A stretch of 64,000 nucleotides of DNA from an uncultured Rhodospirillaceae bacterium (GTDB lineage Bacteria; Pseudomonadota; Alphaproteobacteria; UBA2966): the NCBI GenBank assembly GCA_964528595.1, contig CAZGTM010000008.1, positions 1,133 through 65,132 on the forward strand, read 5' to 3'. The position numbers were made by a program, and so were the translations under genes. Below, one piece after another: positions 17,843 through 53,308 of the stretch (position 1 is its first letter; every line of letters starts with the position of its first letter). The notes beneath the pieces are model-generated. The model searched no databases. It had not been told where the DNA came from and saw only the letters and a program-made list of their open reading frames with translations.

Positions 17843-18691
17843 TCATACCGCTTCTTGCGCTCCCGCCTGCCGCCCGATGGCGGCGTTAATCTCCGCGCCG
17901 AACAGAAAAACCGCGCCCAAAAGATAGAAAAAGATCATGGCGATAACCACGCCGCCCAGGCTGCCGTAGGTGATGTCGTAATTGTTGAAGTGGCCCAGAT
18001 AGAGCGTAAAGGAGGCCGCCGCAGCGCCCCACAGGACCAAGGTGAGCAGCGCGCCGGGCAGGATCGCCTTCCAGGGCGGCCGCCGGGCGGGCAGCATGCC
18101 GTACAGCGCGCTCAGCAACAACAGGACGAAGGCGACGCCGATCAGGCTGCGGAACGGGCCAAGCTCAAACGCCGGCAAATCGATGAAGCCCAATTGCGCC
18201 GCCGCGTCCTGGCAGAGGATGGGAGCCAGGATCAGCACCGTCACGCTGATCACGATCAGGACGCCGCCGACCATCACCAGGCCGATGCTTTCCAGTCGCC
18301 GCCGCCAAAAGGGGATCGGGGATTTTTCCCCGAAGGCGCGCTCGATACCGGCCCTGGCGCCCTCCACAGCCGAGGCCGCCGTCCAGACAGCGCCCGCCAT
18401 ACCGATGGTCAGCAGGCCGCCGCGCAATTCCTGCAGGACCTGCAGGATCGGTTCCTCGAACACGGCCGCCACGTGTTCGGGCATGTTCTCCAGCACGAAG
18501 GCGACGATCATGGTGCCGGCCTCGGTATTACCGATGAAGCCGGCCAGGGCGACGATGAAAATGAGGAAGGGAAAGAGGGTCAAGAGCGTCATGAAAGCGA
18601 GGTGACCGGCGATCAGGGGGGCGCCATTGCGGATGAATCCCACAAAAGCGGAGCCCAGTACCCGGAATGCGCTGTGACCGATGCGGAGCAT
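17843..18691 (-). CDS. YihY/BrkB family inner-membrane protein (formerly called RNase BN)
   Basis: 282 aa, multi-TM. N-terminal FRVLGSAFVGFIRNGAPLIAGHLAFMTLLTLFPFL characteristic of YihY/BrkB. Confidence 0.75.
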   Translation of the reverse strand: MLRIGHSAFRVLGSAFVGFIRNGAPLIAGHLAFMTLLTLFPFLIFIVALAGFIGNTEAGTMIVAFVLENMPEHVAAVFEEPILQVLQELRGGLLTIGMAGAVWTAASAVEGARAGIERAFGEKSPIPFWRRRLESIGLVMVGGVLIVISVTVLILAPILCQDAAAQLGFIDLPAFELGPFRSLIGVAFVLLLLSALYGMLPARRPPWKAILPGALLTLVLWGAAAASFTLYLGHFNNYDITYGSLGGVVIAMIFFYLLGAVFLFGAEINAAIGRQAGAQEAV

Positions 18692-18800
18692 GAGCGTGAG
18701 AGTAGCGCCTCCCGGCTGTCAAACCCATACCTTTGGGCGTTTTACATTTTGTCGAATAGCGAATGGCGGTACTCTGCCAGCCTTCAAAACGGAGCTTGGA

Positions 18801-19481
18801 ATGACAGAGTACAATTACGCCGATTTCAGCCTGAAGCGCGAGATGCCGCCGTTCGATGAATTCCGCGACCGGCTGCACGCCGGGGAACGGGCGCCGGACT
18901 TCCCGCTGGAGGACCTTGCCAGCGGCGCGACCGTGCAACTGCGGGACTTGTGGAAAAAAGGCCCGGCGATCATCGAGTTCGGCTCCTTCACCTGACCGTA
19001 CTGCGCCATGGCGGCCGAGGCGATGGACGACCTCGCCGACCGCCTGGCGGACCGAGCCGTGAGCTCGGCCTTTCTGTACACTCGTGAAGCCCATCCCGGC
19101 GAAAACTACCGCCACCACACCTCGATGGACGGCAAGCGCGCCAACGCGAGGGCCTTTCAGGAGCATGTGAACCTGAGGCGGCCGATCCTGCTGGACGATC
19201 TCGAAGGCACGGCCCACAAGGCCTACGGTATCCTGCCGAACATGACCTGGATCATCGGCAAGGGCGGCATGATCCTTTACAAGGCCGCCTGGACGGGCGT
19301 CGAAGATGTCGAAGACGCTTTCAACAGTCTGATGGACGGTCACGCCCGGCGCATCAAGGACCAACTGGTGCCTTTCTACAGCGAACGCTTCGCCTGGCGG
19401 ACGCGCGATGAGGACGGCTTCAAGGGCGGCCTGGAACGCGCCGGTCCGCAGGCCGTGTCGGACTTCTACGACAAGGAATAG
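18801..19481 (+). CDS. Candidate selenoprotein: thioredoxin-fold peroxiredoxin/deiodinase-like protein with in-frame TGA (Sec) at codon 18993-18995
   Basis: ORFs 18681..18995 and 19008..19481 share one frame and are separated only by a TGA. Read through, the product is ...APDFPLEDLASGATVQLRDLWKKGPAIIEFGSFT-U-PYCAMAAE... The TGA sits at the catalytic Cys position of the redoxin/deiodinase motif. ATG at 18801 has a GGAG RBS. Confidence 0.6.
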
Positions 19482-19544
19482 CAGGACGCTGTCGGACCGG
19501 GGTTAATTTCATTGAACAAATCGACCCTACCCCCCCCATCCTAT

Positions 19545-19567
19545 CCTTCCCCCGCCAGGGGGGAAGG
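19545..19567 (+). terminator. GC-rich hairpin after the selenoprotein gene (candidate terminator)
   Basis: CCTTCCCC-cgccag-GGGGAAGG perfect 8-bp stem. The downstream T-tract is weak. Confidence 0.4.
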
Positions 19568-19601
19568 AACTCACATTGGAAATTCGCCCAAACATTAAAA
19601 G

Positions 19602-19624
19602 CCCTCCCCCTTGACGGGGGAGGG
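19602..19624 (-). terminator. Rho-independent terminator for the minus-strand 3-HAO operon
   Basis: CCCTCCCCC-ttgac-GGGGGAGGG 9-bp stem. On the minus strand it is followed by CTTTTAATGTTT. Confidence 0.55.
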
Positions 19625-19687
19625 TTGGGTGGGGGTGGGGCCACAAGAACTAAATTGGGTTAGCTGATTTCAGCTCGTGGGTAGGAT

Positions 19688-20251
19688 TTACAATTGGACC
19701 CAGCCATCCGGCGGCGAGCCCTTGCCCGGATGCACGGTACCGCAGTTGGGACACTTGCGCGCTTCCTCGTCTTCGTGGAAGGCGTCGTAGATTTTCGGCA
19801 GGGCCGTGACGATGCCGCTGGGACCGCCGAGGGGCACTTCGATGCGGTGGACGCGGGCCTCGCACTCGAAGCAGTACCACTCGAAGCCTTCCTTCATGCC
19901 GTCCATGCGCGGGCTCTCGACGACGATGCCAACGGACCCTTCCTGCGGCCGTTGCGGCGCGTGGATGGTGTGCGACGGCATCATGAAGACCTCGCCCTCG
20001 CGGATCGGCACGTCATAGATCGCACCGTTGTCGGCGATCTTCAGCATCATGTCGCCCTTCACCTGGTAGAACCATTCCTCCACCGGGTCGTCGTGGAAGT
20101 CGACGCGCGTGTTGGGGCCGCCGACCACCATGACGATCATGCCGCTTTCGTCGTGCAGCAGCTTGTTGTTGACCGGCGGCGTCAGGGACGCCTGGTTGTC
20201 GGCAATCCATTGCTGGAAATTGAAGGGGATCAATGTCGGATGTAACGGCAT
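19688..20251 (-). CDS. nbaC: 3-hydroxyanthranilate 3,4-dioxygenase
   Basis: Cupin core: PFNFQQW, VDFHDDPVEEWFYQVKGDM, MPSHTIHAPQRP. C-terminal rubredoxin-like CxxC...CxxC (WYCFEC...CPNCG). Same length and motifs as characterised HAAO/NbaC. Confidence 0.9.
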   Translation of the reverse strand: MPLHPTLIPFNFQQWIADNQASLTPPVNNKLLHDESGMIVMVVGGPNTRVDFHDDPVEEWFYQVKGDMMLKIADNGAIYDVPIREGEVFMMPSHTIHAPQRPQEGSVGIVVESPRMDGMKEGFEWYCFECEARVHRIEVPLGGPSGIVTALPKIYDAFHEDEEARKCPNCGTVHPGKGSPPDGWVQL

Positions 20252-20288
20252 GGCGGAAACTCCCCCGGTCGATGATTACAGTTGAAAC

Positions 20289-21260
20289 CTATTCGGCGGC
20301 TATATCGTCCGTGACCAGACCGCAGCTTTCAAGGGCTATTTTTGTCCGGACCTTTTCGTCCTCCGTCAAATCGAGCATCGGCCGGCGCACCGGACCTCCG
20401 GCCTGGCCCAGCAATTCCTGCCAGTATTTCTGGTGCGCCTGCGGTTTGCCGCCGGGGCGGGTGCCTTTCAGGGCCTGGCGAACGGGTTCCAGGCTGTCGC
20501 GCACCGTCCGGGCTTCCTCGACGCGGCCGGCGAACGCGAGCTCGGTGTATTCATGCATGCGCCGGTCGGCCTTGGTCTGGATCAGATAAGGGGGGGAGGA
20601 GCAGAGGTAGAGCTGCCAGCCCAGTTCCACGATGTTGTCGAACCATTCATCCTCGGAGGCCGAACTCACCAGTATTTTGTCGCCGGCCAGGCGCGTGAGC
20701 TCGGCGTACATGTCGCGCGGCACGCTGTACTTGATGGCGACGATGTTGTCGAGATCGGCAATGCGGTTGCACAGTTCGGGGCTCATCAGATAACCGCTGT
20801 CGGGATGGCTCCACATGGCGATGCCGAGGCCGGTGCGCTCTGAGATGTAGCGGTAATATTCGTACAAGAGATCATCCCGATCCGCTACGAAATGGAGGAC
20901 GGGCGCATGGACGACGATGTAATCGGCGCCGACGTCCTCGGCATGCCGGGTCAGCTCGAGGACGGTATCCAGGTTCTGGTCTGACACCGACATGATGGTG
21001 TTGCCGGCATCACCGGTGGCCTCGACGGCAAGCTCGAACGTGCGCTTGCGTTCCTCAACGGACATCGAGAAAAATTCGCCCTGCTTGCCGGCGATGAACA
21101 GGCCCTCGATGCCGAGGTCCTCGATCCAGTGGCGGATGTTGGCGCGAAAACCGTCCTCGTCGATGGAAAGATCCGGTTTGAACGGGGTCAGCGCCGCCGC
21201 CCAGATGCCCTTCATGTTCTGCCGCGCATAAGCCTTGGCGTCCTGCTTGTCGTACTTCAT
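20289..21260 (-). CDS. Dihydrodipicolinate synthase/N-acetylneuraminate lyase family (class I aldolase, DapA-like)
   Basis: About 323 aa, TIM-barrel DHDPS-family signature. Start at the internal Met 21260 (MKYDKQD) preceded by GGAGGAG. It overlaps the stop of the upstream Mo-hydroxylase gene by 4 nt. Confidence 0.75.
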   Translation of the reverse strand: MKYDKQDAKAYARQNMKGIWAAALTPFKPDLSIDEDGFRANIRHWIEDLGIEGLFIAGKQGEFFSMSVEERKRTFELAVEATGDAGNTIMSVSDQNLDTVLELTRHAEDVGADYIVVHAPVLHFVADRDDLLYEYYRYISERTGLGIAMWSHPDSGYLMSPELCNRIADLDNIVAIKYSVPRDMYAELTRLAGDKILVSSASEDEWFDNIVELGWQLYLCSSPPYLIQTKADRRMHEYTELAFAGRVEEARTVRDSLEPVRQALKGTRPGGKPQAHQKYWQELLGQAGGPVRRPMLDLTEDEKVRTKIALESCGLVTDDIAAE

Positions 21261-25510: not shown

Positions 25511-28429
25511 TCAGGGCATTTTCTTGTTCTTTTCCCAGGATTCTGTAAGCCGTTGGGCGCCCACCAGTTCGTGGGGCAGCATTTCGGCGCGCAGTTCGCC
25601 AAGGAAGCGCTTGGCGGTCTGGTGTCCGTTGTCGGCCGCCAGCGACCACCAGAGATAGGCGCGGGCCAGATCCTCGTCCACGCCGGCGCCGTCGCGATAA
25701 AGCCCGCCGACATAGAACTGGGCGTCCGGATCGCCCTTTTCCGCCGCCGGTAGCCAAAGGTCCAGGGTGGCCTCGTAGTTGCGCGCGCGGTAAGCCAGCA
25801 GTCCGGCATCCAGAATTCCGGAGGGCGGCGGGGCGGAATTCGGTGACGTCGATACCGCAATGGTTTCCGGCGCCAGGGCGGCGGTACGCACGGATTTCCC
25901 ACCCGTTTCCAGTTCGTTGAAGCCACTGCCCGAACCCTCGGCGGCTTCCTTTATCTCTGCCGCCCGGGCCTCGGCCACGATGACCGGCGAGGGCGGTTTG
26001 GGCAGTGCGGGGGGCGTGGGTTTGGCGGCTTCAACCTTGGGCGCGTCCTGCTGTTCGGTTTCGTCGGTTGTGACCGAAGCGGGCGGCGGCGGCGCGGCGG
26101 CCGGTTTTTCCGCTGGCACCGACTTGTTCGCTTCGTCTATTAGGACCTGGGACGGCGGAACCGGTTCGGCGGGCAACGCGGCAGCCGTTTGCGTGCGGGC
26201 CTCCTCGACGAGGACCGGTGAGGGCGGTACGGCTTGGGGGGCGGCGGCCTTCAATCTTTCGGCTATTTCGGCCTTGCGCTTCTCTTCTTCGGCCTTCAAT
26301 TCCGCGGCGGCATCGGCCGCCGCCTGCCGTTTTGCCTCATCGGCTTCGCGCTTCTCCGCCTCGGCCCGCAATCTGGCGGCAACCTCGGCCTCGGCCTTCC
26401 GTTTCGCTTCTTCGGCTTTGCGCTGAACCTCGGCTTCCGCTTCCGCCTTGATACGGGCTTCTTCCGCCCTGCGTTTCCGCACCTCTTCTTCTTCGGCTTT
26501 GCGTTTGGCATCGGCGGCAAGTTGCTTTGCCGCTTCGGCCTTGCGCTTGGCTTCGGCTTCCGCCTCGGCTTCCGCCTTGAGGCGGGCGTAAAGTTCTTCG
26601 GCCCGGCGTTTTTCCTCAGCCAGGCGTTTTTCTTCTTCCTCCCGGCGTTTACGCTCGGCTTCCGCAACCGCCCGCGCTTTAGCCTCTTCCGCTGCCTTGC
26701 GTTTCTCCTCCGCCAGGCGCCGTGCGTCAGCTTCCCGCTTGGCCGCATCCGCCTTGGCTTTTTCCAGCGCTGCTACTTTCCGCCTGGCTTCGGCTTCCGC
26801 GGCAATTTTTTCGGCCGTGCGCGCCGCTTCCTCCGCCCGGACGCGCTCCTCCTCCTCGGCCTTCTTTTCGGCGGCAATGCGCGCCTTGGCTTTGAGGATT
26901 TGCAACTCGGCTTCCTTGCGCCGCTCCTCGGCTTCCTTACGCGCCGTTTCCGCCGCCTCTTCGATCAGGATGGGCGAGGGCACGGCTTGGCGTTTGGCGA
27001 TGGCGGCGGCGAGCTCCTGCTCGGCCTTGCGTGCCTCCGTTTCGGCTGATTTGGCGGCATTACGGACTTTTTCCGCTTCCGCGACGGCGATCTTGGCAAT
27101 CCGTTCCTGCTCGGCCAACAGGACTTCCGCCGCCTTGCGGCGTTCCTCCGCCTTGGCCACGGTCGCTTCGAGGTCCTTGCGTTTGCGTTCGGCCTCGGCA
27201 ATCGCGGCCTCGGCGGCACTGCGCCGGTTTTCGGCATCGATCCGGCGCTGTTCCGCTTCCTCGGCGGCCGTTTCGGCGGCAGTGCGCGCGACCTGGGCCC
27301 GAACCGCTTCCGTCGCCTTGCGTTCGGCTTCCTCCTGGGCAGCCAGGGCGGCGGCCTTTTCCTCTTCCAGTTTTGCCGCCGTCACTTCCGCCGCACGGCG
27401 GGCCGCCGCCGCCGCGGCTTCGGCGGCATTGCGGGCGGCCTGGGCGCGGGCGATATCGGCGGCTTTGCGGTCTTTCTCGGCTTTCGCGGCATCCTCGGCC
27501 GCCTTCAATTCCATGGCCCGGCGTTCAGCCTGGGTGACCTCGCTGGACTGCTGGGCGGCCGCCGCAACGCGGGTGGCTTCGTCCCTGGCGGCTTCCGCCT
27601 TGACGGCCTCGGCGCGCGCCGCCTCCGCCTTGGCGGCTTCTTCCTGCAACTTTTCTTCGGCCAGCCGTTTGGTGTCTTCTGCCAGTCGCTTGGCTTCCTC
27701 CGCCAGGCGTTTGGCTTCGGCTTTGCGGCGGATTTCAGCGGCGCGGCGTTCCGCTTCAGCCTGTTTGCGGGCGGTTTCCGCCTTGCGCGCCGCCTCGGCT
27801 GCCTCCGCCGCCTGCTTTTTCGCTTCGGCTGCGGCTTCGGTGGCGCGTTTTTCGGCTTCGCCGGAATCAGGCGGGGTATCGGTGGGTGCCGGTGTCACGC
27901 CCTTAGAGATCAGTAGGGCCAGCTTTTCCATTGCCTTGCGATTTCCCAGACGCGAGGCCTGGTAGTACCAACTCAGGGCGGTGACATCGCTTTTTTCGAC
28001 GCCGACGCCGTTTTCAAACATCAGGCCGAGGTTGTATTGCGCAATATGGTGGTTCTGTTTCGCCGCCCGCGTGAACCACTTGGCCGCTTCCTTGGGATCC
28101 TTGGAGGTGCCCTGGCCACGCAGATACATATTCCCGAGATTGGCCTGGGCCCGGGCAAAGCCTTGCTCGGCGGCTTTACGGTACCAGATCAGGGACTGCT
28201 TGAAATCCTTGGGTACGCCTTGGCCGACCCGGTAGAGGTGGCCGATGTTTCGTTGTGATGCCGGGTCGCCCTTTTCCGCCAGCGGCAGCCATTCCTTATA
28301 GGCCTTGGCGTAGTCGCCGATTTCATAGGCGGCGAGGCCGGCGGCAAAATCGGCGCGCGCCGGAGCTGCGGCGGCAAACGACAGCACCGCCGTAACAAGA
28401 AGGGCGTAAAGAAATCGTACTGAAGTCAC
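25511..28429 (-). CDS. Secreted Sel1-repeat protein with a long E/A/K/R-rich coiled-coil core and a Pro-rich segment
   Basis: 972 aa. A signal peptide, then N-terminal Sel1 repeats (GDPASQRNIGHLYRVGQGVPKDFKQSLIWYRKAAEQG...). About 570 aa of AEAKRLAEEAKRLAEDTKRLAEE-type low complexity, then a PPSPV Pro-rich stretch. C-terminal Sel1 repeats (GDPDAQFYVGGLYRDGAGVDEDLARAYLWW). Confidence 0.8.
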   Translation of the reverse strand: MTSVRFLYALLVTAVLSFAAAAPARADFAAGLAAYEIGDYAKAYKEWLPLAEKGDPASQRNIGHLYRVGQGVPKDFKQSLIWYRKAAEQGFARAQANLGNMYLRGQGTSKDPKEAAKWFTRAAKQNHHIAQYNLGLMFENGVGVEKSDVTALSWYYQASRLGNRKAMEKLALLISKGVTPAPTDTPPDSGEAEKRATEAAAEAKKQAAEAAEAARKAETARKQAEAERRAAEIRRKAEAKRLAEEAKRLAEDTKRLAEEKLQEEAAKAEAARAEAVKAEAARDEATRVAAAAQQSSEVTQAERRAMELKAAEDAAKAEKDRKAADIARAQAARNAAEAAAAAARRAAEVTAAKLEEEKAAALAAQEEAERKATEAVRAQVARTAAETAAEEAEQRRIDAENRRSAAEAAIAEAERKRKDLEATVAKAEERRKAAEVLLAEQERIAKIAVAEAEKVRNAAKSAETEARKAEQELAAAIAKRQAVPSPILIEEAAETARKEAEERRKEAELQILKAKARIAAEKKAEEEERVRAEEAARTAEKIAAEAEARRKVAALEKAKADAAKREADARRLAEEKRKAAEEAKARAVAEAERKRREEEEKRLAEEKRRAEELYARLKAEAEAEAEAKRKAEAAKQLAADAKRKAEEEEVRKRRAEEARIKAEAEAEVQRKAEEAKRKAEAEVAARLRAEAEKREADEAKRQAAADAAAELKAEEEKRKAEIAERLKAAAPQAVPPSPVLVEEARTQTAAALPAEPVPPSQVLIDEANKSVPAEKPAAAPPPPASVTTDETEQQDAPKVEAAKPTPPALPKPPSPVIVAEARAAEIKEAAEGSGSGFNELETGGKSVRTAALAPETIAVSTSPNSAPPPSGILDAGLLAYRARNYEATLDLWLPAAEKGDPDAQFYVGGLYRDGAGVDEDLARAYLWWSLAADNGHQTAKRFLGELRAEMLPHELVGAQRLTESWEKNKKMP
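26150..27860 (-). repeat. Low-complexity coding repeat (GC-rich GCn/GAn codon reiteration encoding E/A/K/R)
   Basis: Reiterated gcggc/ttcgg/cttgg units. They generate many overlapping spurious ORFs on both strands in the ORF track. Confidence 0.7.
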
Positions 28430-29794: not shown

Positions 29795-29796
29795 GG

Positions 29797-35427: not shown

Positions 35428-36693
35428 CTATCCCAACCGCATGTTGTCGACGCCGACGATCTTGTTGTAAATCAGATACAGCGCCAGCACCGAGAACAGC
35501 AGCAGGGCACCCAGAGCTCCCGCCAAACCCCAGTTCAGGGAAGACTGCATGTGATAGGCGATCTGGTTCGAGATCAAAGTGCCGTCCGTGCCGCCGACCA
35601 GGGCCGGCGTGATGTAATAACCGATCGACAGAATGAAGACGAGAATGCTGCCGGCGCCGATGCCCGACAAAGTTTGCGGCACGTAGACCCGGATAAAGGC
35701 GACCACCGGGTTGGCGCCCAACGACAGTGCCGCCCGCATGTAACTCGGCGGGATCGTCTTCATCACGCTGAACAGTGGCAAGACCATGAAGGGCAGCAGA
35801 ATGTGCGTCATGGCGATAACCGTACCGGTGAGATTATGTATCAGCTGCAGCCTGTTTTCGTCGCCCACCAATCCAAAGAAAACAAACAGGTCGTTTAGAA
35901 CGCCCTGGGATTGAAGCATGGCGATCCAGGCGGTAGTGCGCACCAGCAGCGAGGTCCAGAACGGCAGCAGCACGAAGATCATCAGCAGGTTCGAATAGCG
36001 CACCGGCAAGGTCGCCAGCAAATAGGAAATCGGGTAGGCGAGCACGACGCAGATCAGCGTTATGGCAAGACTGATGGCGAACGTGCGCATGAACAGCATG
36101 CCGTAAATCCGGCGTTTTTCTGGCTGCATCACGATATCGCCGGTGGTGTTGTCGTATTTCATGTCCACCGCGTTGAGATAATAGCCGATCGTGTAGGGGG
36201 CCGTGTTGCGCTTGATGACCGTCCAGGTTTCCACTTCCTTCCACTTGCGGTGCATTTTCAGCACGATGGGCTTGTAGGGGCCTTCCTTGACTTTTTTGGA
36301 TTTGCGGGCGGAGCCGGTAATCATGCCGCGAAGACCGGATTTCTCATAATTCAGCCGCGTCGCCACCTTGCCGATCTCACGGGACTTGGCCCCGGCCTGC
36401 AGGTCCTGGATCAGGGCCGCGAAAACCGGCTCCTCCGGCAGGTCCTTGCCGTCCCAGTCCTTCAGCGCTTCGGTGGTTTTGGGCATCAAGGTGCTGACAT
36501 GCCAGTTATCGACGCTGCGCATGGTCATATCGAAGATGGGAATGAGGAAAGAAAAAAGAATAAATATGAATAGAGGGGCCACCAGAAGCAGGGCACGCAC
36601 CCGGCTTCGGCGCATGGCTTTGTTCAGGCTGGCTTTCAGGGGCCGGCCGTCGGCCGCAAGGACAACTCCGTTTGCCGTCGTATCTTCAGCCAT
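35428..36693 (-). CDS. ABC transporter permease (PotB/PotH-like, long form)
   Basis: 421 aa. LSLGANPVVAFIRVYVPQTLSGIGAGSILVF permease signature. 4-nt gap to the downstream permease. Confidence 0.85.
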   Translation of the reverse strand: MAEDTTANGVVLAADGRPLKASLNKAMRRSRVRALLLVAPLFIFILFSFLIPIFDMTMRSVDNWHVSTLMPKTTEALKDWDGKDLPEEPVFAALIQDLQAGAKSREIGKVATRLNYEKSGLRGMITGSARKSKKVKEGPYKPIVLKMHRKWKEVETWTVIKRNTAPYTIGYYLNAVDMKYDNTTGDIVMQPEKRRIYGMLFMRTFAISLAITLICVVLAYPISYLLATLPVRYSNLLMIFVLLPFWTSLLVRTTAWIAMLQSQGVLNDLFVFFGLVGDENRLQLIHNLTGTVIAMTHILLPFMVLPLFSVMKTIPPSYMRAALSLGANPVVAFIRVYVPQTLSGIGAGSILVFILSIGYYITPALVGGTDGTLISNQIAYHMQSSLNWGLAGALGALLLFSVLALYLIYNKIVGVDNMRLG

Positions 36694-36794
36694 TCAATTC
36701 CCCATCGAAATAAAGCGCGCCGGACGTCGTTGGAAATTTCTTGTTGGTTGGATTGCGGGGCAGGCGAACCTGCCCCGCGCACCAATGTCGAGCC

Positions 36795-37898
36795 TTACTT
36801 CAGCAACCAAGCTGCGAAACGTTCATTCATTTCGTCAGCATTGTCCGCCCACCAGGAGAAATTGGTGAGGAAACCCTGATCGGCATATTTGGTCGGCATG
36901 TGCGGTCCCATTTCGATGCCGAGAGTGGCATGCTTGGAAACCATCGGACCGGAGGACTTGCGGGCCGGGCCGTAGGAAATGAACTTGGCCTGATCGGCCA
37001 GACGCTGTGTGTCGGTCGCGAATTTCACGAACTTCATCACGGCGTCGATGTTCTTACCCTTGGCGGAAACCGCCCAGCCATCGATGTCCAGGACCTGACC
37101 GTCCCAGAGCATGGAGAAAGGCTGCTTTTCCTCGGCGATGGCGGAGAACCAACGACCGTTGTAGCCCGTGCCGAACACGGCTTCGCCGTCGGCCAGCAAC
37201 TGCGGGGGAACGGCGCCTTCCGTCCACCAGATCACGTCCTTCTTGATGGTCGCAAGTTTGTCGAACGCGCGGTCCTTGCCTTCGTCGGTGTCCAGAACGT
37301 CATAGATCTTGCTCAGCGGAACGCCGTCTGCGATCAGCGCCCATTCGAGGTTGTTAATCGGTTTTTTCTGCAGGGTGCGCTTACCCGGGAAGTTCTTGGT
37401 ATCGAACACGTCAGCCATGGTTTTGGGCTGCTTGCCGCCCCAGGCATCGCTGCGATAAGCAAAAACGGTCGAGTAAATGATCTGCGGAACGAAGCATTCC
37501 GAAAGCAGCGTGCCTTCAAGGAAATCCTTGGAAGCAGGGGTGCCGTCGGGCGCCTTTGCCATTTCCATGTCGATATCGATCGGACGGAACATGCCTTCGT
37601 CACAGCCGGTGATGGCGTCGGACAGAACCACGTCGACCAGATCCCAGGTGACGTTTCCGGCTTCCGTCTGGGCACGCATTTCGGCCAGACCGCCGCTGTA
37701 ATCAATGGAATTGATCTTCACGTCGGGGTTCTTTTTCATGTACGGCTTGTGATAGGCGTTCATTTGGCTGGCCGTGTAGGCGCCGCCCCATGAAACGACA
37801 TTCAGGTCGACAGCCTGGGCCGTCGTCGCCAGACCGGCAAAGGCAATGCCCGCGACTGCAAGAGTTGATAATTTCAGCAACTTACTCATTTGATACAT
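36795..37898 (-). CDS. ABC transporter periplasmic substrate-binding protein (PotD/PotF-like, polyamine-type)
   Basis: Signal peptide MSKLLKLSTLAVAGIAFAGLATTAQA. Family-1 SBP fold with SWGGAYTASQ. Confidence 0.8.
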   Translation of the reverse strand: MYQMSKLLKLSTLAVAGIAFAGLATTAQAVDLNVVSWGGAYTASQMNAYHKPYMKKNPDVKINSIDYSGGLAEMRAQTEAGNVTWDLVDVVLSDAITGCDEGMFRPIDIDMEMAKAPDGTPASKDFLEGTLLSECFVPQIIYSTVFAYRSDAWGGKQPKTMADVFDTKNFPGKRTLQKKPINNLEWALIADGVPLSKIYDVLDTDEGKDRAFDKLATIKKDVIWWTEGAVPPQLLADGEAVFGTGYNGRWFSAIAEEKQPFSMLWDGQVLDIDGWAVSAKGKNIDAVMKFVKFATDTQRLADQAKFISYGPARKSSGPMVSKHATLGIEMGPHMPTKYADQGFLTNFSWWADNADEMNERFAAWLLK

Positions 37899-37991
37899 CC
37901 TCCTTGTTGGTATCGGTATTTTTGTTAAGCGTTCTACTATCCTTGTCTGCCGAGCTTGGTGACGCGGACCAAGCCCTCTATCCGTTGACGG

Positions 37992-39098
37992 CTACGCGTC
38001 CAGTGCCCGGCAATCGTCGGCTTCCCAGCCGATTTGCGTGACCTCCCCTTCCTTGAGGTGAACATGGCCGTGAGAGTTTGGAACCTTCACGATGAATTCG
38101 TCGTTGCCGGAAAGACTGACCCGGCTGCGAATGTGGTCTCCCAGATAAATAAGCTCCACCACCTTCGCTTCCAGCGAGTTGGCTGAACTTTCCTTGGCCG
38201 CCCCGATGGTGGTGCGTTCCGGGCGGAGCGATAATGTCGTCCGCGATCCGACTCCGTCGATATTCACGGCAAGCGCTTTGACCATGCCGCCGCCGCCTTC
38301 CAGCTCCACTTGGCAATAGTCCCCGTTGACTTCCTTCACCTCGCCGTAAAGTCGGTTGTTCTCGCCTATGAAGCCGGCGACGAACGCATTCAGAGGTTTT
38401 TCATAAAGCTCATCGGGTGGCGCCAGTTGCTGGACGATGCCGTCATCGAACACCGCGATGCGGTTGGACATGGTCAGCGCTTCCGACTGATCGTGGGTAA
38501 CGTAGACCATGGTGACCTGCAGGTTCTCGTGGATATGCTTGATCTCGTACTGCATTTCCTCGCGCAGGTTCTTGTCCAGGGCGCCGAGCGGTTCATCCAT
38601 CAACACCAGGCTGGGTTCGAACACCAGGGCCCGGGACACGGCGACGCGCTGCTGCTGACCGCCCGACAATTGCGCCGGTCGGCGGTCGCCAAAGCCGCCG
38701 AGACGCACCATGTCGAGCGCCCGGTTGACCTTTTCGCTGACCTCGGATTTGCCCATGCCGCGCACTTCCAGGGGGAAGGCGAGGTTTTCGGCCACCGTCA
38801 TGTGGGGGAACAGCGCGTAATTTTGGAAGACCATGCCGATGCCGCGCTTGTGCGGGGGCACGTTATTGATGGGGACGCCTTCCAGGTAAATTTCGCCGTG
38901 GGTGGCCGGTTCGAAGCCCGCCAACATCATCAGGCAGGTTGTCTTCCCTGAGCCGGATGGGCCGAGCATCGTGACAAACTCGCCTTTTGCCACATCCAGA
39001 TTGAAATCTTTTACGACAAGCGTTTCACCATCGTAACTCTTTTGCACTGATTCAAAACGAACCAGTGGCTCCGACCCGTCAGACATTAATTCCACCAT
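37992..39098 (-). CDS. ABC transporter ATP-binding protein (PotA-like)
   Basis: Walker A GPSGSGKTT, the signature LSGGQQQRVAVSRAL, Walker B LVLMDEPLGALD, and a C-terminal TOBE-like regulatory domain. Confidence 0.9.
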   Translation of the reverse strand: MVELMSDGSEPLVRFESVQKSYDGETLVVKDFNLDVAKGEFVTMLGPSGSGKTTCLMMLAGFEPATHGEIYLEGVPINNVPPHKRGIGMVFQNYALFPHMTVAENLAFPLEVRGMGKSEVSEKVNRALDMVRLGGFGDRRPAQLSGGQQQRVAVSRALVFEPSLVLMDEPLGALDKNLREEMQYEIKHIHENLQVTMVYVTHDQSEALTMSNRIAVFDDGIVQQLAPPDELYEKPLNAFVAGFIGENNRLYGEVKEVNGDYCQVELEGGGGMVKALAVNIDGVGSRTTLSLRPERTTIGAAKESSANSLEAKVVELIYLGDHIRSRVSLSGNDEFIVKVPNSHGHVHLKEGEVTQIGWEADDCRALDA

Positions 39099-39303
39099 CC
39101 CCGCTATGTCATTTGGCCTGACTTTGTTGCCAGTGCCGGCTTTTTATTTTGTTCAATTAAACCTAACACGGAAAATTCTTCAAACAGAACCGAGAATATC
39201 GAATATTTCCTGTGCCTGGCTCAAATTGGCTAGGTTGGAGCCTAACACCGGTTTTGATCTTGATTTTGTCTCAGGAGCGACAGGTTCGGAGCCAAATGCG
39301 CAT

Positions 39304-40227
39304 ATGACCATGGAATATTTACGCAAACACTGGCGGGGGGATCTCCCGTTTGCGCTGACCTTTTGGGTCAATCTGGTGCTTTTGCGCACCCTCATCGTCT
39401 ATCTCGAAGACTTCGTCCATCCGCCGTTTCTGGAGAAGTCGGCGGCGGTCATTGCCTTGTCGTTTCTCTATTTTCTGGTGTTCGACGTGGTCGTTCTGAT
39501 CTGGCAAGTCAGGGGGACGATCAAGGCCAGCGACCGTTACGCCGCCGCGTACGGTTCGCCGATCATGGTCACGGGATCGCATTTCGGCATCGCCGTCTGC
39601 CTGTTGTTCACCGGATTTGCCAGCCATACGTCGTATCAGTCACTGTTTGTCAAAGACAGTTCAAACAGCGAAAACCGGTTGTCGTGGAGCCACAGCCTGC
39701 TCGGCGACTACACCCTGACGCCCGCCCGCGATAATTCGCGCATTCATGTCGAAGGCGATTTCAGGATCGGCATTTCCGACGAACTGGCGGGCATGCTGGA
39801 GAAGATGCCGTCGGTTGGCGCCATCGTTCTGACCAGCAATGGCGGACGGGTCACCGAAGGCCGCCGGCTGGCTCAACTGTTCAAAAAGTCGAACCTGGAT
39901 ACCTATGTTTACGGCGAGTGCAAATCAGCCTGCACGACGGCCTTCATCGGGGGCCGGAAGAGGGTGCTGGGGCCCCGCGCCAAACTTGGATTCCATCAGT
40001 TCAGTCTGGACGGCGCTTATTTCAATCCCTATGTCGACGCCGAAGCCGAGCAGAAAATCGATCTGGACTTCTACACCCTGCAGGGCATCGGCAACGAATT
40101 CCTGGAAGAGGTTTTTCAGGCCACCCATAACGAGATGTGGTTCCCCGAGCCGGAAGCCCTGCGGGCCGCCGGCGTAATCCACCAAATCCTGCCGGAGAAT
40201 GAGGATTTCCGAAAGTCGGATTGGTAA
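39304..40227 (+). CDS. Membrane protein with C-terminal ClpP/crotonase-fold (NfeD/SppA-like, COG3904-like) domain
   Basis: N-terminal TM helices. C-terminal SNGGRVTEGRRLAQLFKKSNLDTYVYGECKSACTTAFIGGRKRVLGPRAKLGFHQ resembles the serine-protease-like S49/ClpP core. Start taken at Met 39304; the longer ORF from 39106 is unlikely. Confidence 0.45.
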   Translation: MTMEYLRKHWRGDLPFALTFWVNLVLLRTLIVYLEDFVHPPFLEKSAAVIALSFLYFLVFDVVVLIWQVRGTIKASDRYAAAYGSPIMVTGSHFGIAVCLLFTGFASHTSYQSLFVKDSSNSENRLSWSHSLLGDYTLTPARDNSRIHVEGDFRIGISDELAGMLEKMPSVGAIVLTSNGGRVTEGRRLAQLFKKSNLDTYVYGECKSACTTAFIGGRKRVLGPRAKLGFHQFSLDGAYFNPYVDAEAEQKIDLDFYTLQGIGNEFLEEVFQATHNEMWFPEPEALRAAGVIHQILPENEDFRKSDW

Positions 40228-40306
40228 CGGAACAGCTAGGGGTGCCGGCGGCCATTGCGGCTTCCGCCGGCCCGAACCGGCGGCGCCACGATGGAGCCGG
40301 TCTTGG

Positions 40307-40741
40307 TTACGTCGTACAGGCTTTGGCGCCGGCCGGGCGTTCGGGCGCGTTATCGAGAAGGCTCTTCAAGGCGCTTTCGCTGGTTTGCGCCACGACGCGC
40401 GCCAGTTCGCCTTTCGGCGAGAGCATGACCAGCGTCGAGCGCCTGACGACCCTCAGCTTTTTCGAAATCGGGGAACCTGCGTGAATATCCCAATCAGCAT
40501 ATATAAAGGCGATGTTCCTGTCGTAGTCGGCGTTGCCTGATCTCAGTTGCCGGATCACACGGACCTGGCGCTGGCAGGTGCCTCACCACTTGGCGCCGAA
40601 ATCAAGGACGACCGAACAGCCCTTGGCCAGCGCCGCATCAAGTGCCTTCGGCGAATAGGGTGTGTCCCCGTTCCCCGCGTTCGCCGCCGTGGCGCCCATT
40701 AGCGCCAGGGCGCCCGCGGCCAGCATTCCAATTTTATTCAA
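40307..40741 (-). CDS. Candidate selenoprotein: periplasmic thioredoxin-like protein (Trx/TlpA-like, CcdA partner) with in-frame TGA (Sec) at 40583-40585
   Basis: Minus-strand frame continuous from TTG 40741 (RBS GGAGGAG 6 nt upstream, 3 nt after the ccdA stop). Read through, the product is (M)NKIGMLAAGALALMGATAANA|GNGDTPYSPKALDAALAKGCSVVLDFGAKW-U-GTCQRQVRVIRQLRSG...VVRRSTLVMLSPKGELARVV... It has a signal peptide and the Trx motif W-C-G-P-C with the first Cys replaced by TGA. The ORF track reports only the 83-aa part after the stop. Confidence 0.6.
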
Positions 40742-40759
40742 TTTCAACTCCTCCCCATC

Positions 40760-41524
40760 TCATATCGAAACGGATAGATCCTGTAACCAGAGCGGCAGGA
40801 TATTCAAAACACGGCCCTCCAGCCAATGGTCAACGCCCAATAAAATGCCCACGCCGACACACAAAAACGTGATCCCCAGGACGGGTTTGGCGCGCTCGGA
40901 AAGGTATCCGAACGCTTTTTGCCGTCGCTGGATGACTTCGCGGGCGCCGAAGGCCAGCGCCAGGATGACGCTGGAGACACCCAGCGCGAAGGTCGCCATG
41001 ATGCCACCGGCCCAGGCCAGGCTTTCCCCTTGCGAGGCCAGCGCGATGGCGCCGCCCAGCGTGGGGCCGATGCAGGGCGACCAAATCGCCCCCAGCAGAA
41101 AGCCGCCGATGAACTGACCGCCGAGGCTGGTGGCCGCGCCGCCCGCCTCGAGTCCGCGCAGACCCGTATCGGCGCGGGCGGCGAATACCGCGGTTAGGGC
41201 CGCAAAGCCGTCATTCAGGCGCGGCACCAAAAGAACCACGCCAAAACCGATCATCAACCAGGCGCCCGTCGTGGTCATCAGGCGTTGATCGAGACCGATG
41301 GACGCCCCCGCCACCAGCACAAACATGCCGACCACGACGAAGGACAGGCTGAGGCCCGCAGCCATGACCAGCGGCCCCCGCCGGTCGGCCTGCAGCGAAG
41401 AGGCCAGCACGATGGGCAGCACAGGCAGAACGCAAGGATTGATCAGCGTCAGCAACCCGGCGAGATATCCCAACACCAGTTCAAGCACCGCAGTCTCCAA
41501 ATTTCGACCGTCAAATAGAGACAT
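40760..41524 (-). CDS. ccdA: Cytochrome c-type biogenesis / thiol-disulfide electron-transfer membrane protein CcdA (DsbD beta-domain family)
   Basis: Two conserved Cys in TM segments: LINPCVLPVLP and AIWSPCIGPTLGGA. Six TM helices. Confidence 0.88.
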   Translation of the reverse strand: MSLFDGRNLETAVLELVLGYLAGLLTLINPCVLPVLPIVLASSLQADRRGPLVMAAGLSLSFVVVGMFVLVAGASIGLDQRLMTTTGAWLMIGFGVVLLVPRLNDGFAALTAVFAARADTGLRGLEAGGAATSLGGQFIGGFLLGAIWSPCIGPTLGGAIALASQGESLAWAGGIMATFALGVSSVILALAFGAREVIQRRQKAFGYLSERAKPVLGITFLCVGVGILLGVDHWLEGRVLNILPLWLQDLSVSI

Positions 41525-41809
41525 GAAAGCCGGATTGGCTTCCAGTCACTTTTCCTTCATCAAAACCAGAATTTTTTCATCTGTGTCGCCGGGACGGCGT
41601 CGCCTTGAGCAAATAATAACTATTTTCGAAGGAACGTCTGGAAGCGGGCTGGAAAATCAATTTTCATCGCCTACACCTAACGCGGCGCAAAGCGCCGGTG
41701 AACATACGAAATGGATATGGGCTCATCGGTCGGCGGTCCCTTTTTTTGTGCTTTGTGTCTATTGTGCGATTGGGAATGGTCAATCAAGACACCGGACATC
41801 ATTGTCGGT

Positions 41810-43609
41810 CTAAATATCCTCCAGTCCAGCTTTCCTCAGGCCGTCAATCAGGTCCTCCTGGCAGGAAATCCGATAGTCGCCAATGATATTGGCAAGGTCC
41901 GGGTAGGCAGCCTGGAGAGCCTCGCACTCGGCTCGGGCATCTTCCACCTGCCCCAGATGGGCGAGTGCGGCGATGCGTACAGCCGCAAAGTGAAAGATCT
42001 GTGAACTACCGGTGGCCGACCCTTCAAAATTTCGGGCCTTGGTTGACATTTCAAGAGCACGGTCATAGTCGCCAAGGGAAAAATGAGCTATCACCAAAGC
42101 ATCTAAAAACTGATGTGCCAGAATGTCGCGCGGGCTCAGGCGCATGGCCGCTTCTATATGTTTGATGCCTTCATTGGCACGTCCGACATACACCAAAGCC
42201 CGCCCGAGTGTGCTCCGGATGGAGGCTGAATTTGGATTGACGGCCAGGCCTTGCTCCAGGACAGGCAAGGCTTGCTCAAGCCGGCCCAGGATGCAGCCCT
42301 GCATCACCAACACAGCACCAAGTCCCCAATAGGTATTTACATCGTCGTGACCCAATTCAACAGCTCTGCGCCCTTCCGCAATTGCTTCGTCGAATGTGGC
42401 GGAACGATTCTCGGTGATGTTTGTGTAGGCCTGCATGCCCAGGGCTCGTGACACCCCAGTATGTGCCTGCGGTAGATTGGGATCGAGCGAAATCGATTGG
42501 CGAAACAAATCCTCCGATTTTGCGAGACTTTCGGGTGTTGGACGTACTAAGCCCTGCATCCCTCGCTGGTATAGGTCCCACGCATCAATGTTTGCCGGAT
42601 GTTTGCGAATGGACCGCTCGCGTTCAGCCCGGGTAAGTTCGGGTTCAATGGCTCCGGCGACAGTTCCGGTTATCTCGTCTTGGAGGTCGAATATGTCTAT
42701 GAGATTTCTGTCGTAGCTTTCAGCCCAGATATGGCTGCCTGTGGAACCATCTATTAGCTGAGCCGAAATCCGCAATCGGTCCCCGGCTTTTCGAACGCTA
42801 CCTTCAAGCACATAGCGCACATTCAAATCCTTTGCGACGTCGCGAAGGTCGGGCGATTGCCCCTTGTAGGAGAAGGTCGAGTTGCGGGCTGTCACTTGAA
42901 GCCATCCGATCCGCGACAAGGCAGTGATAATGTCTTCGGTGATGCCGTCTGAAAAATACTCCTGTTCCAGATCACTAGACAAATTGTCGAACGGTAACAC
43001 TGCAATCGCCGGTTTTTCAGGCGCCGCTACTGAAGAACCAGTTTTGATTGGTTCTATCCCGACACGATATGCGCGGATCGGCAATTCGATGTTTTTGACA
43101 CGATGTTCGCCCATATCCTCGACAGTAATGTCGAGCCGGTGACGAACCTGATCAGCGACGATGCCGGTCAGGCAGATGCCACCCGGTTCTGCCAGGCTTT
43201 CCAACCGTGCGGCTATATTGACGCCGTCACCATAAATTTCACCATCGTCATCAATAACCTCACTCATATGGATCCCGATGCGGAACAACAGGCGCTGATC
43301 TTCCGGTATATCCCTGTTCTCGTCCCGGAACCGACGCTGAACTTCGACGGCCATTTCGACGCAACCGACGACGCTGCCGAATTCAGCAAGGATCGCATCT
43401 CCGGCATAATGGTTTACCTTGCCTCCCCGGCCCTCAATGGCGCGGGTCAGCGTGGATAGTCCGGAACGTAGCGCCTCGTGCGTGGCGTCTTCGTCTAGCC
43501 CTGTTAGTCGTGAATACCCTGCAACATCGGCATAAAATATAGCTGCCAGTTTTCGCTGGTATGGTTGGTCCGCCATATGCCTCCCCCAGGCATAGATCTT
43601 CATGATCAT
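41810..43609 (-). CDS. Class III adenylate/guanylate cyclase catalytic domain fused to TPR repeats
   Basis: N-terminal CHD (FYADVAGYSRLTG...GDAILAEFGSVVGCVEMAVEVQ...GIHMSEVI...GDGVNIAARLE) followed by a TPR-like C-terminal half. Confidence 0.8.
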   Translation of the reverse strand: MIMKIYAWGRHMADQPYQRKLAAIFYADVAGYSRLTGLDEDATHEALRSGLSTLTRAIEGRGGKVNHYAGDAILAEFGSVVGCVEMAVEVQRRFRDENRDIPEDQRLLFRIGIHMSEVIDDDGEIYGDGVNIAARLESLAEPGGICLTGIVADQVRHRLDITVEDMGEHRVKNIELPIRAYRVGIEPIKTGSSVAAPEKPAIAVLPFDNLSSDLEQEYFSDGITEDIITALSRIGWLQVTARNSTFSYKGQSPDLRDVAKDLNVRYVLEGSVRKAGDRLRISAQLIDGSTGSHIWAESYDRNLIDIFDLQDEITGTVAGAIEPELTRAERERSIRKHPANIDAWDLYQRGMQGLVRPTPESLAKSEDLFRQSISLDPNLPQAHTGVSRALGMQAYTNITENRSATFDEAIAEGRRAVELGHDDVNTYWGLGAVLVMQGCILGRLEQALPVLEQGLAVNPNSASIRSTLGRALVYVGRANEGIKHIEAAMRLSPRDILAHQFLDALVIAHFSLGDYDRALEMSTKARNFEGSATGSSQIFHFAAVRIAALAHLGQVEDARAECEALQAAYPDLANIIGDYRISCQEDLIDGLRKAGLEDI

Positions 43610-43883
43610 TCTAGAGTCAGTTGGTCAGATAACAATGGGTTTGGAGAAGTTGGAGTTAAAGCGTGAGTCTGTTTTGGGTCATCATCGGACCCGCACACCA
43701 GCATCAACAAATGGTCTTTACGCCCATCAAAGCGGATCTCGGTTCTCAGGAGCTCCGCATTCCAGCGCAAAGTTGACCGGCAAAAAAACCGAGGTGCACC
43801 GACGTGGCGGGAAAATTGTTTGCTAGCCACTAAGCGACATGCAACTTTCTGAAGCGGTGAATAGCTCGGGGGGGTAAATACGC

Positions 43884-44324
43884 ATGACCAGCAAACTCTA
43901 CTTTGAAGATATCCAAGTGGGCGACAAATTTGTCGGCGATACGGTCGTCGCCGAACGGGAGAAAATGCTGTTCTTCGCTGAAGAATTTGATAACCAACCG
44001 ATGCATCTCGATGTGGATGCCGCACGGGCCATGGGCTTAAAAGACATCATTGCCCCCGGGGCCTACATATTCGCCCTGAACGCGAAATCACAGCGGGCCA
44101 TTTGGAAACGTCTTCATATGCTGCCCAGTGGACTTGGCATCAGCGTCAGTTTTTTGTTGCCGGTGTATGCCGAGGACACGCTAACCGCGCAGCTGGAGGT
44201 TCTAGCAACGCGACAGAGCAGCAAACCGGGACGCGGTTGGATCGACACAAAAGTGACGATTAGAAATCAAAGCGGTGATGTCGCCGTCGACTGCGAAGCA
44301 GCACTACTGTTGGTTGGCAGGTAG
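43884..44324 (+). CDS. MaoC-like (R)-specific enoyl-CoA hydratase/dehydratase hot-dog protein
   Basis: 146 aa. FEDIQVGDKF...FAEEFDNQPMHLDVDAARAMG typical of the MaoC/PhaJ family. Confidence 0.8.
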   Translation: MTSKLYFEDIQVGDKFVGDTVVAEREKMLFFAEEFDNQPMHLDVDAARAMGLKDIIAPGAYIFALNAKSQRAIWKRLHMLPSGLGISVSFLLPVYAEDTLTAQLEVLATRQSSKPGRGWIDTKVTIRNQSGDVAVDCEAALLLVGR

Positions 44325-48698: not shown

Positions 48699-48716
48699 CC
48701 GCTTGACGCCGCCGCC

Positions 48717-49712: not shown

Positions 49713-49714
49713 TC

Positions 49715-52042: not shown

Positions 52043-52177
52043 TTTCGCCCATTTCCCGGGTCCGTGGCGAGTCCGATTACGCTTCGGTGATCAAGGCCTC
52101 TTGCCAACGCTTCATACATTAAGAGTAAGATAGTTCAATCAGTTCGTTTAAGTATTTCTCGCGAACAACACAGGGGG

Positions 52178-53308
52178 GTGTCGGTTGTGACAACTGTGCT
52201 AACGGAATCCGGGCCGGTGGACGTGACGGCGGGCCCGGGCGGCGTTGACCAGCTTTGGCTGTCGACGCAGGAGACGGAAGCCGTATCCGGCTGGAGCCTG
52301 AAACCGGAAGGCTTGTGCCGAGGCGACGTTTGCATGCCCGTGCCGGGTGGCCAGGCGGACGAATACGTCCGCGACGATGTCATAAATCTGGCGGCGTTCT
52401 GGCGGCGTATGGACAAGCCTTTGGCCCACAGCCGCAACGGCGAGGTTTGGGCCTTTGGTGAAAGCGCAGGCGATCGGACGGCGACATTGAGATCGCTGGA
52501 TGCGCCGGAGTTTACGTTGCCCGACTTGGACGGCAAGGCTCACAGCCTGTCGGATTATCGCGGCAAGAAGGTTTTCTTAGCGACCTGGGCATCCTGGTGA
52601 GGCTGTCGTGCTGATCTGTCCGTGTGGCAGAAAATTTACGACGATTATCGGGACCGGGACTTCATTTGCATCGCCGTGGCGATGGACAACGATGTTGAGG
52701 CGGCACGCCCCTGGATCGAGGAGGCCAACCCGACCTATCCGGTGCTGATCGATCGCTTTCACCGGCTGGCCGATCTTTACAACATGGTCAACGTGCCGCA
52801 GGCGGTGTGGATCGACGCTGCCGGCAGGATCGTGCGGCCGACCGAAAATGCCGGTGCGTTCGAAGGCTTCCGAGCGTTCGACTTCGAGACCATGACGATG
52901 CCGGACGAGGTCACTGCCACGGTCAAAGGTGCCAAGGCGACCTACGCTGCCGCGGTAGCGGATTGGGCCGAAAAAGGCGCCGACAGCGTTCACGTTTTCG
53001 CGCCGGAGGAGGCCGAGGCCCATCTGGAGGCGCCGAACGAGGATGTCGCCCGAGCGCACGTTTTGTTTCGCCTGGGATTGCACCTAGGTCAGCTTGGCCA
53101 CCAAGATGAGGCCGACGAAGTTTTGGCCCTGGCCAGTGAGCTGCATCCCGACTCCTGGACGATCTGGCGCCAGACCGCCGAAAAACTCGAGAACGGGTTG
53201 GCGGCGGGGCCGGCATTCTGGCAACGCGTTCAGGCCCTGGGTGAACGGCACTACTATCGGCCGGTCGACATGGCCGGCATGCCAAGAGAAGGACCGCCGA
53301 CGCGTTGA
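52178..53308 (+). CDS. Candidate selenoprotein: redoxin (TlpA/AhpC-TSA family thiol-disulfide oxidoreductase) with in-frame TGA (Sec) at 52598-52600, plus N- and C-terminal extensions
   Basis: ORFs 52178..52600 and 52622..53308 share one frame and are separated only by a TGA. Read through, the product is ...LDAPEFTLPDLDGKAHSLSDYRGKKVFLATWASW-U-GCRADLSVWQKIYDDYRDRDFICIAVAMDNDVEAARPWIEEANPTYPVLID... This matches the TlpA/redoxin pattern APxFxLxDLxGKxxxLxDxxGKxVxLxFWASWCxPC with Sec in place of the first Cys. The start is uncertain (GTG 52178 or 52187). Confidence 0.55.

Follow-up and report, generated by a model that had tools for sequence, protein, structure and literature searches.

Three unlinked thioredoxin-fold genes of an uncultured marine Rhodospirillaceae bacterium most likely decode an in-frame UGA as selenocysteine

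Introduction

In the bacterial model of the selenocysteine insertion sequence (SECIS), 16-37 nt lie between the UGA codon and the loop of a hairpin, and the apical loop contains a G. Among proteins of the thioredoxin fold, passages of the Sargasso Sea and Global Ocean Sampling (GOS) surveys list the selenoprotein families 'Deiodinase-like', 'Prx-like 1-3', 'Prx-like (UGC-containing)' and 'Trx-like 1-3', which carry UxxC or UGC motifs, where U denotes selenocysteine (Sec) (PMC1088965, PMC2398784). For Rhodospirillales, decoding of UGA as Sec has been described, and in some cases selC lies within selB (PMC8124441). Here we analyse 64,000 nucleotides of DNA (the window) from an uncultured Rhodospirillaceae bacterium (NCBI assembly GCA_964528595.1, contig CAZGTM010000008.1, positions 1,133 to 65,132 of the forward strand), in which three genes, referred to as genes 1, 2 and 3, are interrupted by an in-frame TGA at the catalytic position of a thioredoxin-fold redox motif. 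With a probability of about 0.93, we judge these to be genuine, unlinked selenoprotein genes whose UGA is most likely decoded as Sec.

An original prediction, made from the letters of the window, had proposed that UGA is read here as Sec by machinery encoded elsewhere and that open reading frame (ORF) calls split the genes, and this core inference is supported by the comparisons below. The prediction had also stated that selenoprotein families of the thioredoxin fold are known mainly from metagenomic surveys, which agrees with passages of the published surveys (PMC1088965, PMC2398784, PMC13188914). The families of genes 1-3 are listed as selenoproteins in these passages, and all three genes are new members of families described since 2005-2008. 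A cultivable organism had been suggested as the source; instead, the window is a marine metagenome contig whose nearest genomes are uncultured Rhodospirillaceae metagenome-assembled genomes (MAGs).

Results

An in-frame TGA marks the thioredoxin-fold nucleophile in three genes

Six-frame translation with TGA marked located the three sites within the following genes (position 1 is the first letter of the window).

18801-19481, forward strand: gene 1, predicted deiodinase-like/Prx-like thioredoxin-fold selenoprotein, 226 aa including Sec65
18993-18995, forward strand: UGA (predicted Sec) codon of gene 1, FGSFT-U-PYC
40307-40747, reverse strand: gene 2, predicted small secreted thioredoxin-like selenoprotein, 139 aa counted from the ATG at 40726
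40583-40585, reverse strand: UGA (predicted Sec) codon of gene 2, DFGAKW-U-GTC, followed by QR
52178-53308, forward strand: gene 3, predicted ResA/TlpA-like 'UGC-containing' selenoprotein, ~376 aa, start uncertain
52598-52600, forward strand: UGA (predicted Sec) codon of gene 3, VFLATWASW-U-GCR

The TGAs expected at the nucleophile of the fold were found at 18993, 40585 and 52598, and past each of them the reading frame goes on as a conserved domain, as had been predicted. Gene 1 has an ATG start with GGAG 6 nt upstream and ends with TAG; position 18681 is the first start of its N-terminal ORF, and its TGA lies within EFGSFT-U-PYC (in longer peptide context, EFGSFT-U-PYCAMAAEAMDDLADR). Possible alternative TTG starts of gene 2 lie at 40741 and 40747, and position 53308 is the stop of gene 3. 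The three genes are spaced 12-21 kb apart and surrounded by unrelated housekeeping genes. In a relative MAG, genes 1 and 2 sit on separate contigs, and gene 3 is apparently not on the contig of gene 2 either. Because of this spacing and the separate contigs, the three genes do not constitute an operon.

The interruptions are by TGA only, as the original prediction had emphasized, yet this is weak evidence alone because TGA is also the stop codon of 21 of the ~44 ordinary genes in the window. These 21 genes have the lengths expected from their Pfam domains. Since UGA serves as their ordinary stop, a global reassignment of UGA is excluded. It is rather the position of the TGAs at the catalytic residue, together with their conservation in other genomes, that rules out chance. 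Screens of codon usage and of GC content at third codon positions detected no further TGA-interrupted genes in the window, although these screens are insensitive and ranked genes 2 and 3 low; their remaining hits were antisense shadows or adjacent genes.

The TGAs are conserved across genomes and independent assemblies

In alignments with Cys-containing homologues, each TGA falls on the first Cys of the redox motif. The gene 1 codon is TGA in 80/80 of the best GTDB genome loci, at 43-97% identity, and these loci come from Alpha-, Beta- and Gammaproteobacteria, Acidimicrobiia, Holophagae, Terriglobia (Acidobacteriota), Chloroflexota, Marinimicrobia and Bacillota. The gene 2 codon is TGA in 10/10 loci, comprising 7/7 metagenome loci at 49-59% identity (L101-L107) and the close relatives L005-L007; the scan for the metagenome loci was built on a 4-sequence alignment, as a 24-sequence alignment was too diverse. 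For gene 3 the TGA is present in 5/5 loci, five being the count after near-identical assemblies among L002-L004, L108, L109, L111 and L112 were merged. In all three genes the ratio of nonsynonymous to synonymous substitution rates (dN/dS) is 0.05-0.36 on each side of the TGA, which places either half under purifying selection. Apart from the TGA, no stop or frameshift interrupts the genes.

These data bear directly on whether the genes might be pseudogenes that arose through three independent nonsense mutations. Such an origin would accommodate the two fragments that gene callers report for each gene, but it leaves unexplained that the same TGA occurs in every homologue and across phyla, that dN/dS is well below 1 on either side with the frame otherwise intact, and that the TGA sits exactly on the catalytic residue in three of three genes. 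We consider pseudogenes very improbable. Recoding of UGA as Sec is favoured over three nonsense mutations, in line with the original prediction, by the retention of TGA (80/80, 10/10 and 5/5), by purifying selection and by the SECIS-type constraint described below.

The nearest genomes in GTDB are the MAGs CAYOAD01, with ~93% nucleotide identity around gene 1, and CAYFKJ01 (GCA_964343605.1), with ~87%; both are syntenic with the window around gene 1. The GC content of the window is 0.56-0.65. A matching contig of JGI metagenome 3300007765 (Ga0105010_1000083; 108,268 bp) was identified, and near-identical contigs are present in many marine metagenome assemblies. We compared assemblies from JGI (3300007765, 3300009405), ENA (ERZ23499079, ERZ23499040) and Logan (SRR9166049, SRR8062333), which derive from separate samples and pipelines. 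The same TGAs were found with identical sequence (L012-L014 for gene 1; L015-L017 for gene 2), so that the TGAs sought in independent assemblies of the same population were all present and identical. Sequencing or assembly errors, in which TGC or TGT was misread as TGA, would have had to recur in each of these assemblies and also in the diverged relatives that carry the same codon, and this is the least probable of the explanations considered.

Standard ORF calls split the three genes, as predicted: JGI, ENA, NCBI and Logan all record two ORFs for each (64 + 157 aa for gene 1, 47 + 83 aa for gene 2, 63-140 + 228 aa for gene 3). Because gene callers treat UGA as a stop, public annotations hold only fragments. 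Callers find a second ORF because an ATG or GTG lies 4-9 codons past each UGA. The genes could in principle be truly split, with translation stopping at UGA and restarting downstream to give two chains that together form a thioredoxin fold. In that case the nucleophile and the residues preceding the restart (PYCA, GTCQRQVRV and GCRADLS) would be lost, yet they are conserved; moreover, the Cys forms are single chains, and a SECIS accounts better than a ribosome-binding site for the RNA element under constraint. Truly split genes are accordingly as improbable as pseudogenes. On the strength of these comparisons, sequencing error, pseudogenes and split genes can for practical purposes be regarded as excluded.

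Synonymous variation collapses at the SECIS distance downstream of each UGA

Codon conservation was measured as the fraction of identical codons among pairs encoding the same amino acid, binned along each family. At codons +6 to +11 past the UGA (nt +18 to +36), this fraction is 0.69 for gene 1, 1.00 for gene 2 and 1.00 for gene 3, compared with 0.25-0.71 in other bins (mostly 0.3-0.55; 0.35-0.51 elsewhere in gene 1). In all three families, synonymous variation collapses where the apical part of a bacterial SECIS belongs. The candidate RNA elements are as follows.

40550-40568, reverse strand: candidate SECIS hairpin core of gene 2, CCAGGUC-CGUGU-GAUCCGG, apical loop CGUGU 21 nt past the UGA
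52615-52631, forward strand: candidate SECIS hairpin core of gene 3, UCUGUC-CGUGU-GGCAGA, apical loop CGUGU 20 nt past the UGA
18996-19052, forward strand: SECIS-like structured region of gene 1, with the strongest synonymous constraint at 19011-19028 (GCGGCCGAGGCGAUGGAC)

Genes 2 and 3 resemble known bacterial SECIS elements (the E. coli fdhF type and the bSECISearch model of Zhang and Gladyshev) in having a hairpin directly after the UGA, with a small apical loop 20-21 nt downstream and a G at the second loop position. They are unlike known elements in that the loop, CGUGU closed by C-G, is common to two unrelated genes and conserved in both families. The nucleotides CAGGTCCGTGTGATC of the gene 2 hairpin are kept in relatives of 49-59% protein identity, and the outer stem of the gene 3 hairpin extends to 52604-52643. 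Stem pairing is also kept where relatives differ: a G.U pair is replaced by A-U in L105, and a U.G pair by C-G in L108 (gene 3).

The core UCCGUGUG is common to the hairpins of genes 2 and 3 and has only two occurrences in the window, 21-22 nt after those two TGAs. Likewise, the 8-mer TCCGTGTG occurs twice in 128 kb (both strands of the window), both times at these hairpins. The loop C-CGUGU-G is thus the same in the two genes despite the unrelated protein sequence encoded there (QVRVI versus DLSVWQ). We estimate the chance that both occurrences of the 8-mer would fall at the same offset from two of the three candidate codons to be of the order of 1e-8.

Gene 1 shows excess structure directly after its UGA, at the place where genes 2 and 3 have their stem-loop, and nowhere else in the gene. 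Relative to synonymous-codon shuffles, folding of the 60 nt after its UGA gives z = -2.84 in the window and a mean of -1.11 over 81 homologues, compared with means of -0.38 to +0.10 for six other segments of the gene 1 homologues. Two alternative 5-bp helices flank an invariant AUGGA, each ~80% paired and with covariation. A search of Rfam gave no match to a curated RNA family in the window.

Gene 1 belongs to the deiodinase-like/Prx-like group

Gene 1 matches the Pfam models AhpC-TSA (PF00578; 40 bits) and T4_deiodinase (PF00837; 37.2 bits against a cut-off of 27), both above cut-off. Its best match among solved structures is mouse Dio3 (4tr3), and the alignment places U on the Sec site of Dio3 (Cys in 4tr3). 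The NCBIfam model deiodinase_rel (NF038285) scores 65.6 bits over part of the profile, below its cut-off of 250, so gene 1 is not a member, and the NCBIfam search returned no specific curated model for it. The closest known systems are the bacterial deiodinase-like/Prx-like UxxC selenoproteins of the surveys and the animal iodothyronine deiodinases; gene 1 has the motif FGSxT-U-P in common with deiodinases. Whereas deiodinases have UPPF, gene 1 has UPYC, a UxxC motif with a resolving Cys, and a conserved C-terminal extension (...VPFYSER.AW...AGPQAV.D) is a further difference. Gene 1 is placed at the level of the deiodinase-like/Prx-like group and is not matched to one survey family; it would represent a UxxC oxidoreductase of the peroxiredoxin/deiodinase fold with a conserved C-terminal extension.

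Nearly all of the best 120 database proteins for gene 1 are fragments of 150-190 aa that start at the first Met past the motif. Among these 120, one is a full-length Cys relative (P0007, FGSFTCPYC). Sec thus appears to be almost obligatory in this clade, judging from the 80/80 loci and the single Cys form among the top 120 proteins.

A groundwater deltaproteobacterial MAG contig (L059) contains two TGA-containing paralogues ~1.2 kb apart (at ~494 and ~1684), of which one carries FGSIT-U-PPF, a motif like that of animal deiodinases, and the other is of the UPYC type. A third copy lies on another contig of the same MAG (L072).

Gene 2 is a thioredoxin-like gene adjacent to a CcdA-type transporter gene

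Gene 2 scores above the cut-offs of the Pfam models Thioredoxin (PF00085; 27.7 against 23.5 bits) and Thioredoxin_7 (29.1 against 27 bits). Where thioredoxin has W-C-x-x-C, gene 2 has W-U-G-T-C, with a UxxC motif, which aligns with W-C-P-V-C of thioredoxin 5zpv such that U lies on the first Cys; 44 Cys homologues have WC[STG]TC at this position. The N-terminus, judged by eye, is hydrophobic and ends in ANA, and the Cys forms carry Tat-like RR-type signals. The family contains full-length Cys forms of 130-145 aa and fragments of 70-84 aa. It is small: a search of 1.84 billion proteins with the 91-aa stretch after Sec returned 112 representatives at E<=1e-3, and the NCBIfam search found no specific model for it.

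Directly upstream of gene 2 is the following gene.

40760-41524, reverse strand: CcdA/DsbD-type membrane thiol-disulfide transporter gene (DsbD_TM, 50.5 bits against a cut-off of 27.1)

The same neighbour is found in L005, L101, L102 and L106 and is not found in L103-L105; about half of the lineages examined thus show the linkage, which is not universal. Besides thioredoxin and the Trx-like UxxC selenoproteins, gene 2, with its putative export-type N-terminus and the DsbD_TM gene ahead of it, resembles the CcdA/DsbD-coupled periplasmic thioredoxin-like reductases (ResA, TlpA and the DsbD C-terminal domain), but unlike these it forms a small family of its own. These features point to an exported seleno-thioredoxin, which would probably be reduced in the periplasm by electrons delivered via CcdA.

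In most Sec forms of the gene 2 family, a further conserved Cys lies 2-4 residues before the C-terminus (AKACTT, AASCS, AEACSS, SKPCTG). It is present as Cys137 in the window (40316-40318, reverse strand) and in L005, L101 and L103-L105, and it is absent from the Cys forms and from L106 and L107. This Cys could serve as a third redox residue or could bind metal.

The CcdA gene ends in a TGA (40760-40762, reverse strand) that shares its frame with gene 2 and precedes the Sec codon by 59 codons; L005 has this arrangement as well. A CcdA-thioredoxin fusion produced through a second Sec is unlikely, since L101 lacks this frame relation and the stop is followed by a signal-peptide-like start.

The segment from 36000 to 44000 has a GC content of ~0.565, against 0.60-0.65 elsewhere, and holds an ABC transporter, the CcdA-gene 2 pair and a TPR/guanylate-cyclase-like gene. 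Downstream of gene 2, the window and L005 have different neighbours (DUF3299, ZrgA, MacB-type ABC), which suggests that local rearrangement or transfer may have occurred around gene 2.

Gene 3 is a diverged UGC-containing TlpA/ResA-like gene

In gene 3, a thioredoxin fold that bears WASW-U-GCR stands between an N-terminal domain containing CxxxxC and a C-terminal domain of helical/TPR-like type. The gene matches the Pfam models AhpC-TSA and Redoxin. It also matches the curated selenoprotein family NCBIfam NF041054 (WAxxUGC_long, 'ResA-like WAxxUGC motif-containing protein'), which aligns with E = 2.9e-82 and 276.8 bits over profile positions 6-349 of 354. The score lies below the curated cut-off of 300, a near miss that fits a diverged member of a wider UGC-containing family. 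The motif of NF041054, WAxxUGC[R/K] in a ResA/TlpA-type thioredoxin fold, is present in gene 3, as are the same three-part architecture and an end-to-end alignment with the UGC-containing TlpA/ResA-like selenoproteins. Identity to full-length UGC-containing members, one of which is named as such by NCBI, is 45-59%. Gene 3 can thus be described as a diverged marine alphaproteobacterial branch of the UGC-containing TlpA/ResA-like family. A literature search on the WAxxUGC motif gave no match.

In alignments with solved ResA structures, U is opposite the first Cys of CxxC and a one-residue gap shortens the motif to U-G-C; such a centre would form a strained selenenylsulfide. About 85 full-length homologues have WASWCGCR, with the first Cys opposite the UGA, and this motif is found in all full-length relatives at 45-59% identity. 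All of the closest relatives, at 66-100% identity, have been entered in databases as 228-aa fragments; for that reason they appear to represent Sec forms.

A tRNA-Sec gene neighbours a homologue of gene 1

The original prediction had noted that the window holds no selA, selB, selD or tRNA-Sec gene, and the tRNA, Rfam and gene searches found none there; indeed, the window contains no tRNA. In a betaproteobacterial MAG (L040; JBQTJF010000227.1), ARAGORN identified a tRNA-Sec with anticodon TCA at 2753-2848 on the reverse strand, which matches Rfam RF01852 with 71 bits against a cut-off of 47. It lies ~600 nt downstream of a gene 1 homologue (L040:1501-2157) and is the only tRNA in the ~330 kb of homologous loci scanned.

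It is conceivable that UGA is read without selenium, as Trp, Gly or Cys or through suppression by a near-cognate tRNA, to give full-length proteins that are not selenoproteins. In its favour, no Sec machinery was found in ~82 kb, and a few database homologues have W entered at this position (P0223, WASWWGCR; P0276 and P0342, WWSTC), although these are probably TGAs that a gene caller translated under genetic code 4 or 25. Against it, TGA ends 21 ordinary genes of the window at the lengths expected from Pfam; genuine full-length homologues have Cys at the site, never Trp or Gly; all three families show position-specific RNA constraint at the SECIS distance; and a tRNA-Sec gene stands beside one homologue of gene 1. 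Readthrough without selenium is unlikely, albeit the most probable of the alternatives considered.

Several observations weigh against decoding as Sec. Searches for selA, selB, selC and selD found none of them in ~82 kb, made up of the window, 10 kb past its end and 7.8 kb before its start, with the flanks taken from the same contig and from a longer one. For gene 1, RNAalifold on 39 homologues returned no consensus hairpin, and three hand-specified helices were each ~79-80% paired, with none clearly right. In this GC-rich DNA, the hairpin energies of single sequences are no better than at random TGAs: folding 50-70 nt after each of the three TGAs gave z values of -1.9 to +0.6, and an equally good bacterial SECIS-like hairpin was found at 27-31% of random TGAs in the window. 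Because so many random TGAs fold equally well, single-sequence folding is not evidence here.

Other features of the window

Outside the three genes, a gene at 15246-15818 (reverse strand) encodes an AhpD-like/CMD protein with an intact CVYC motif, a Cys form of a family with known Sec forms (CxxU); therefore, not every candidate redox family here uses Sec. At 25511-28429 (reverse strand) lies a gene for a 972-aa protein that has Sel1-type repeats at both ends and no Pfam match on record; its central ~600 aa are nearly all Ala, Glu, Lys and Arg, and the gene explains the AT skew of -0.36 seen at 24-28 kb. At 1954-2184 (forward strand) there is a small, isolated gene of the TusA sulfur-carrier family (81 bits to Pfam TusA; CPxP motif). 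Its neighbours are an O-methyltransferase gene on one side and an RND efflux pump on the other, and no YedE/YeeE or selD gene is nearby.

Discussion

If the three UGAs are decoded as Sec, what is established for other selenoproteins would apply here. A SECIS hairpin in the mRNA just past the UGA would recruit SelB carrying Sec-tRNA(Sec), and this complex would outcompete release factor 2 at the UGA. Sec would then be a stronger nucleophile than Cys, be it in thiol/selenol-disulfide exchange or in the reduction of peroxides.

No new mechanism is involved, since Sec decoding in Alphaproteobacteria and these protein families are already established. The consequences lie rather in annotation and in the assignment of hosts. 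Hundreds of homologues in JGI, ENA, NCBI and Logan are stored as truncated fragments without the catalytic residue, and for genes 1 and 2 there is no curated model to rescue such fragments. Families first known as anonymous ocean reads can now be assigned to hosts, namely uncultured Rhodospirillaceae MAGs. The three genes also provide a clean example in which a SECIS signature is readable directly from suppressed synonymous variation.

A broader proposal, which we advance only tentatively and consider rather doubtful, is that this uncultured marine Rhodospirillaceae lineage has an unusually large thioredoxin-fold selenoproteome for an alphaproteobacterium, as three genes within 64 kb would suggest, and that the gene 1 clade (in which Sec would be obligatory, across at least 6 phyla and with no curated model) and the gene 2 family (which would be a CcdA-coupled periplasmic seleno-thioredoxin with the additional C-terminal Cys) are effectively invisible to annotation. 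If this were true, the C-CGUGU-G hairpin loop would be a preferred SelB-binding module, and it could be used as a probe to enumerate such genes.

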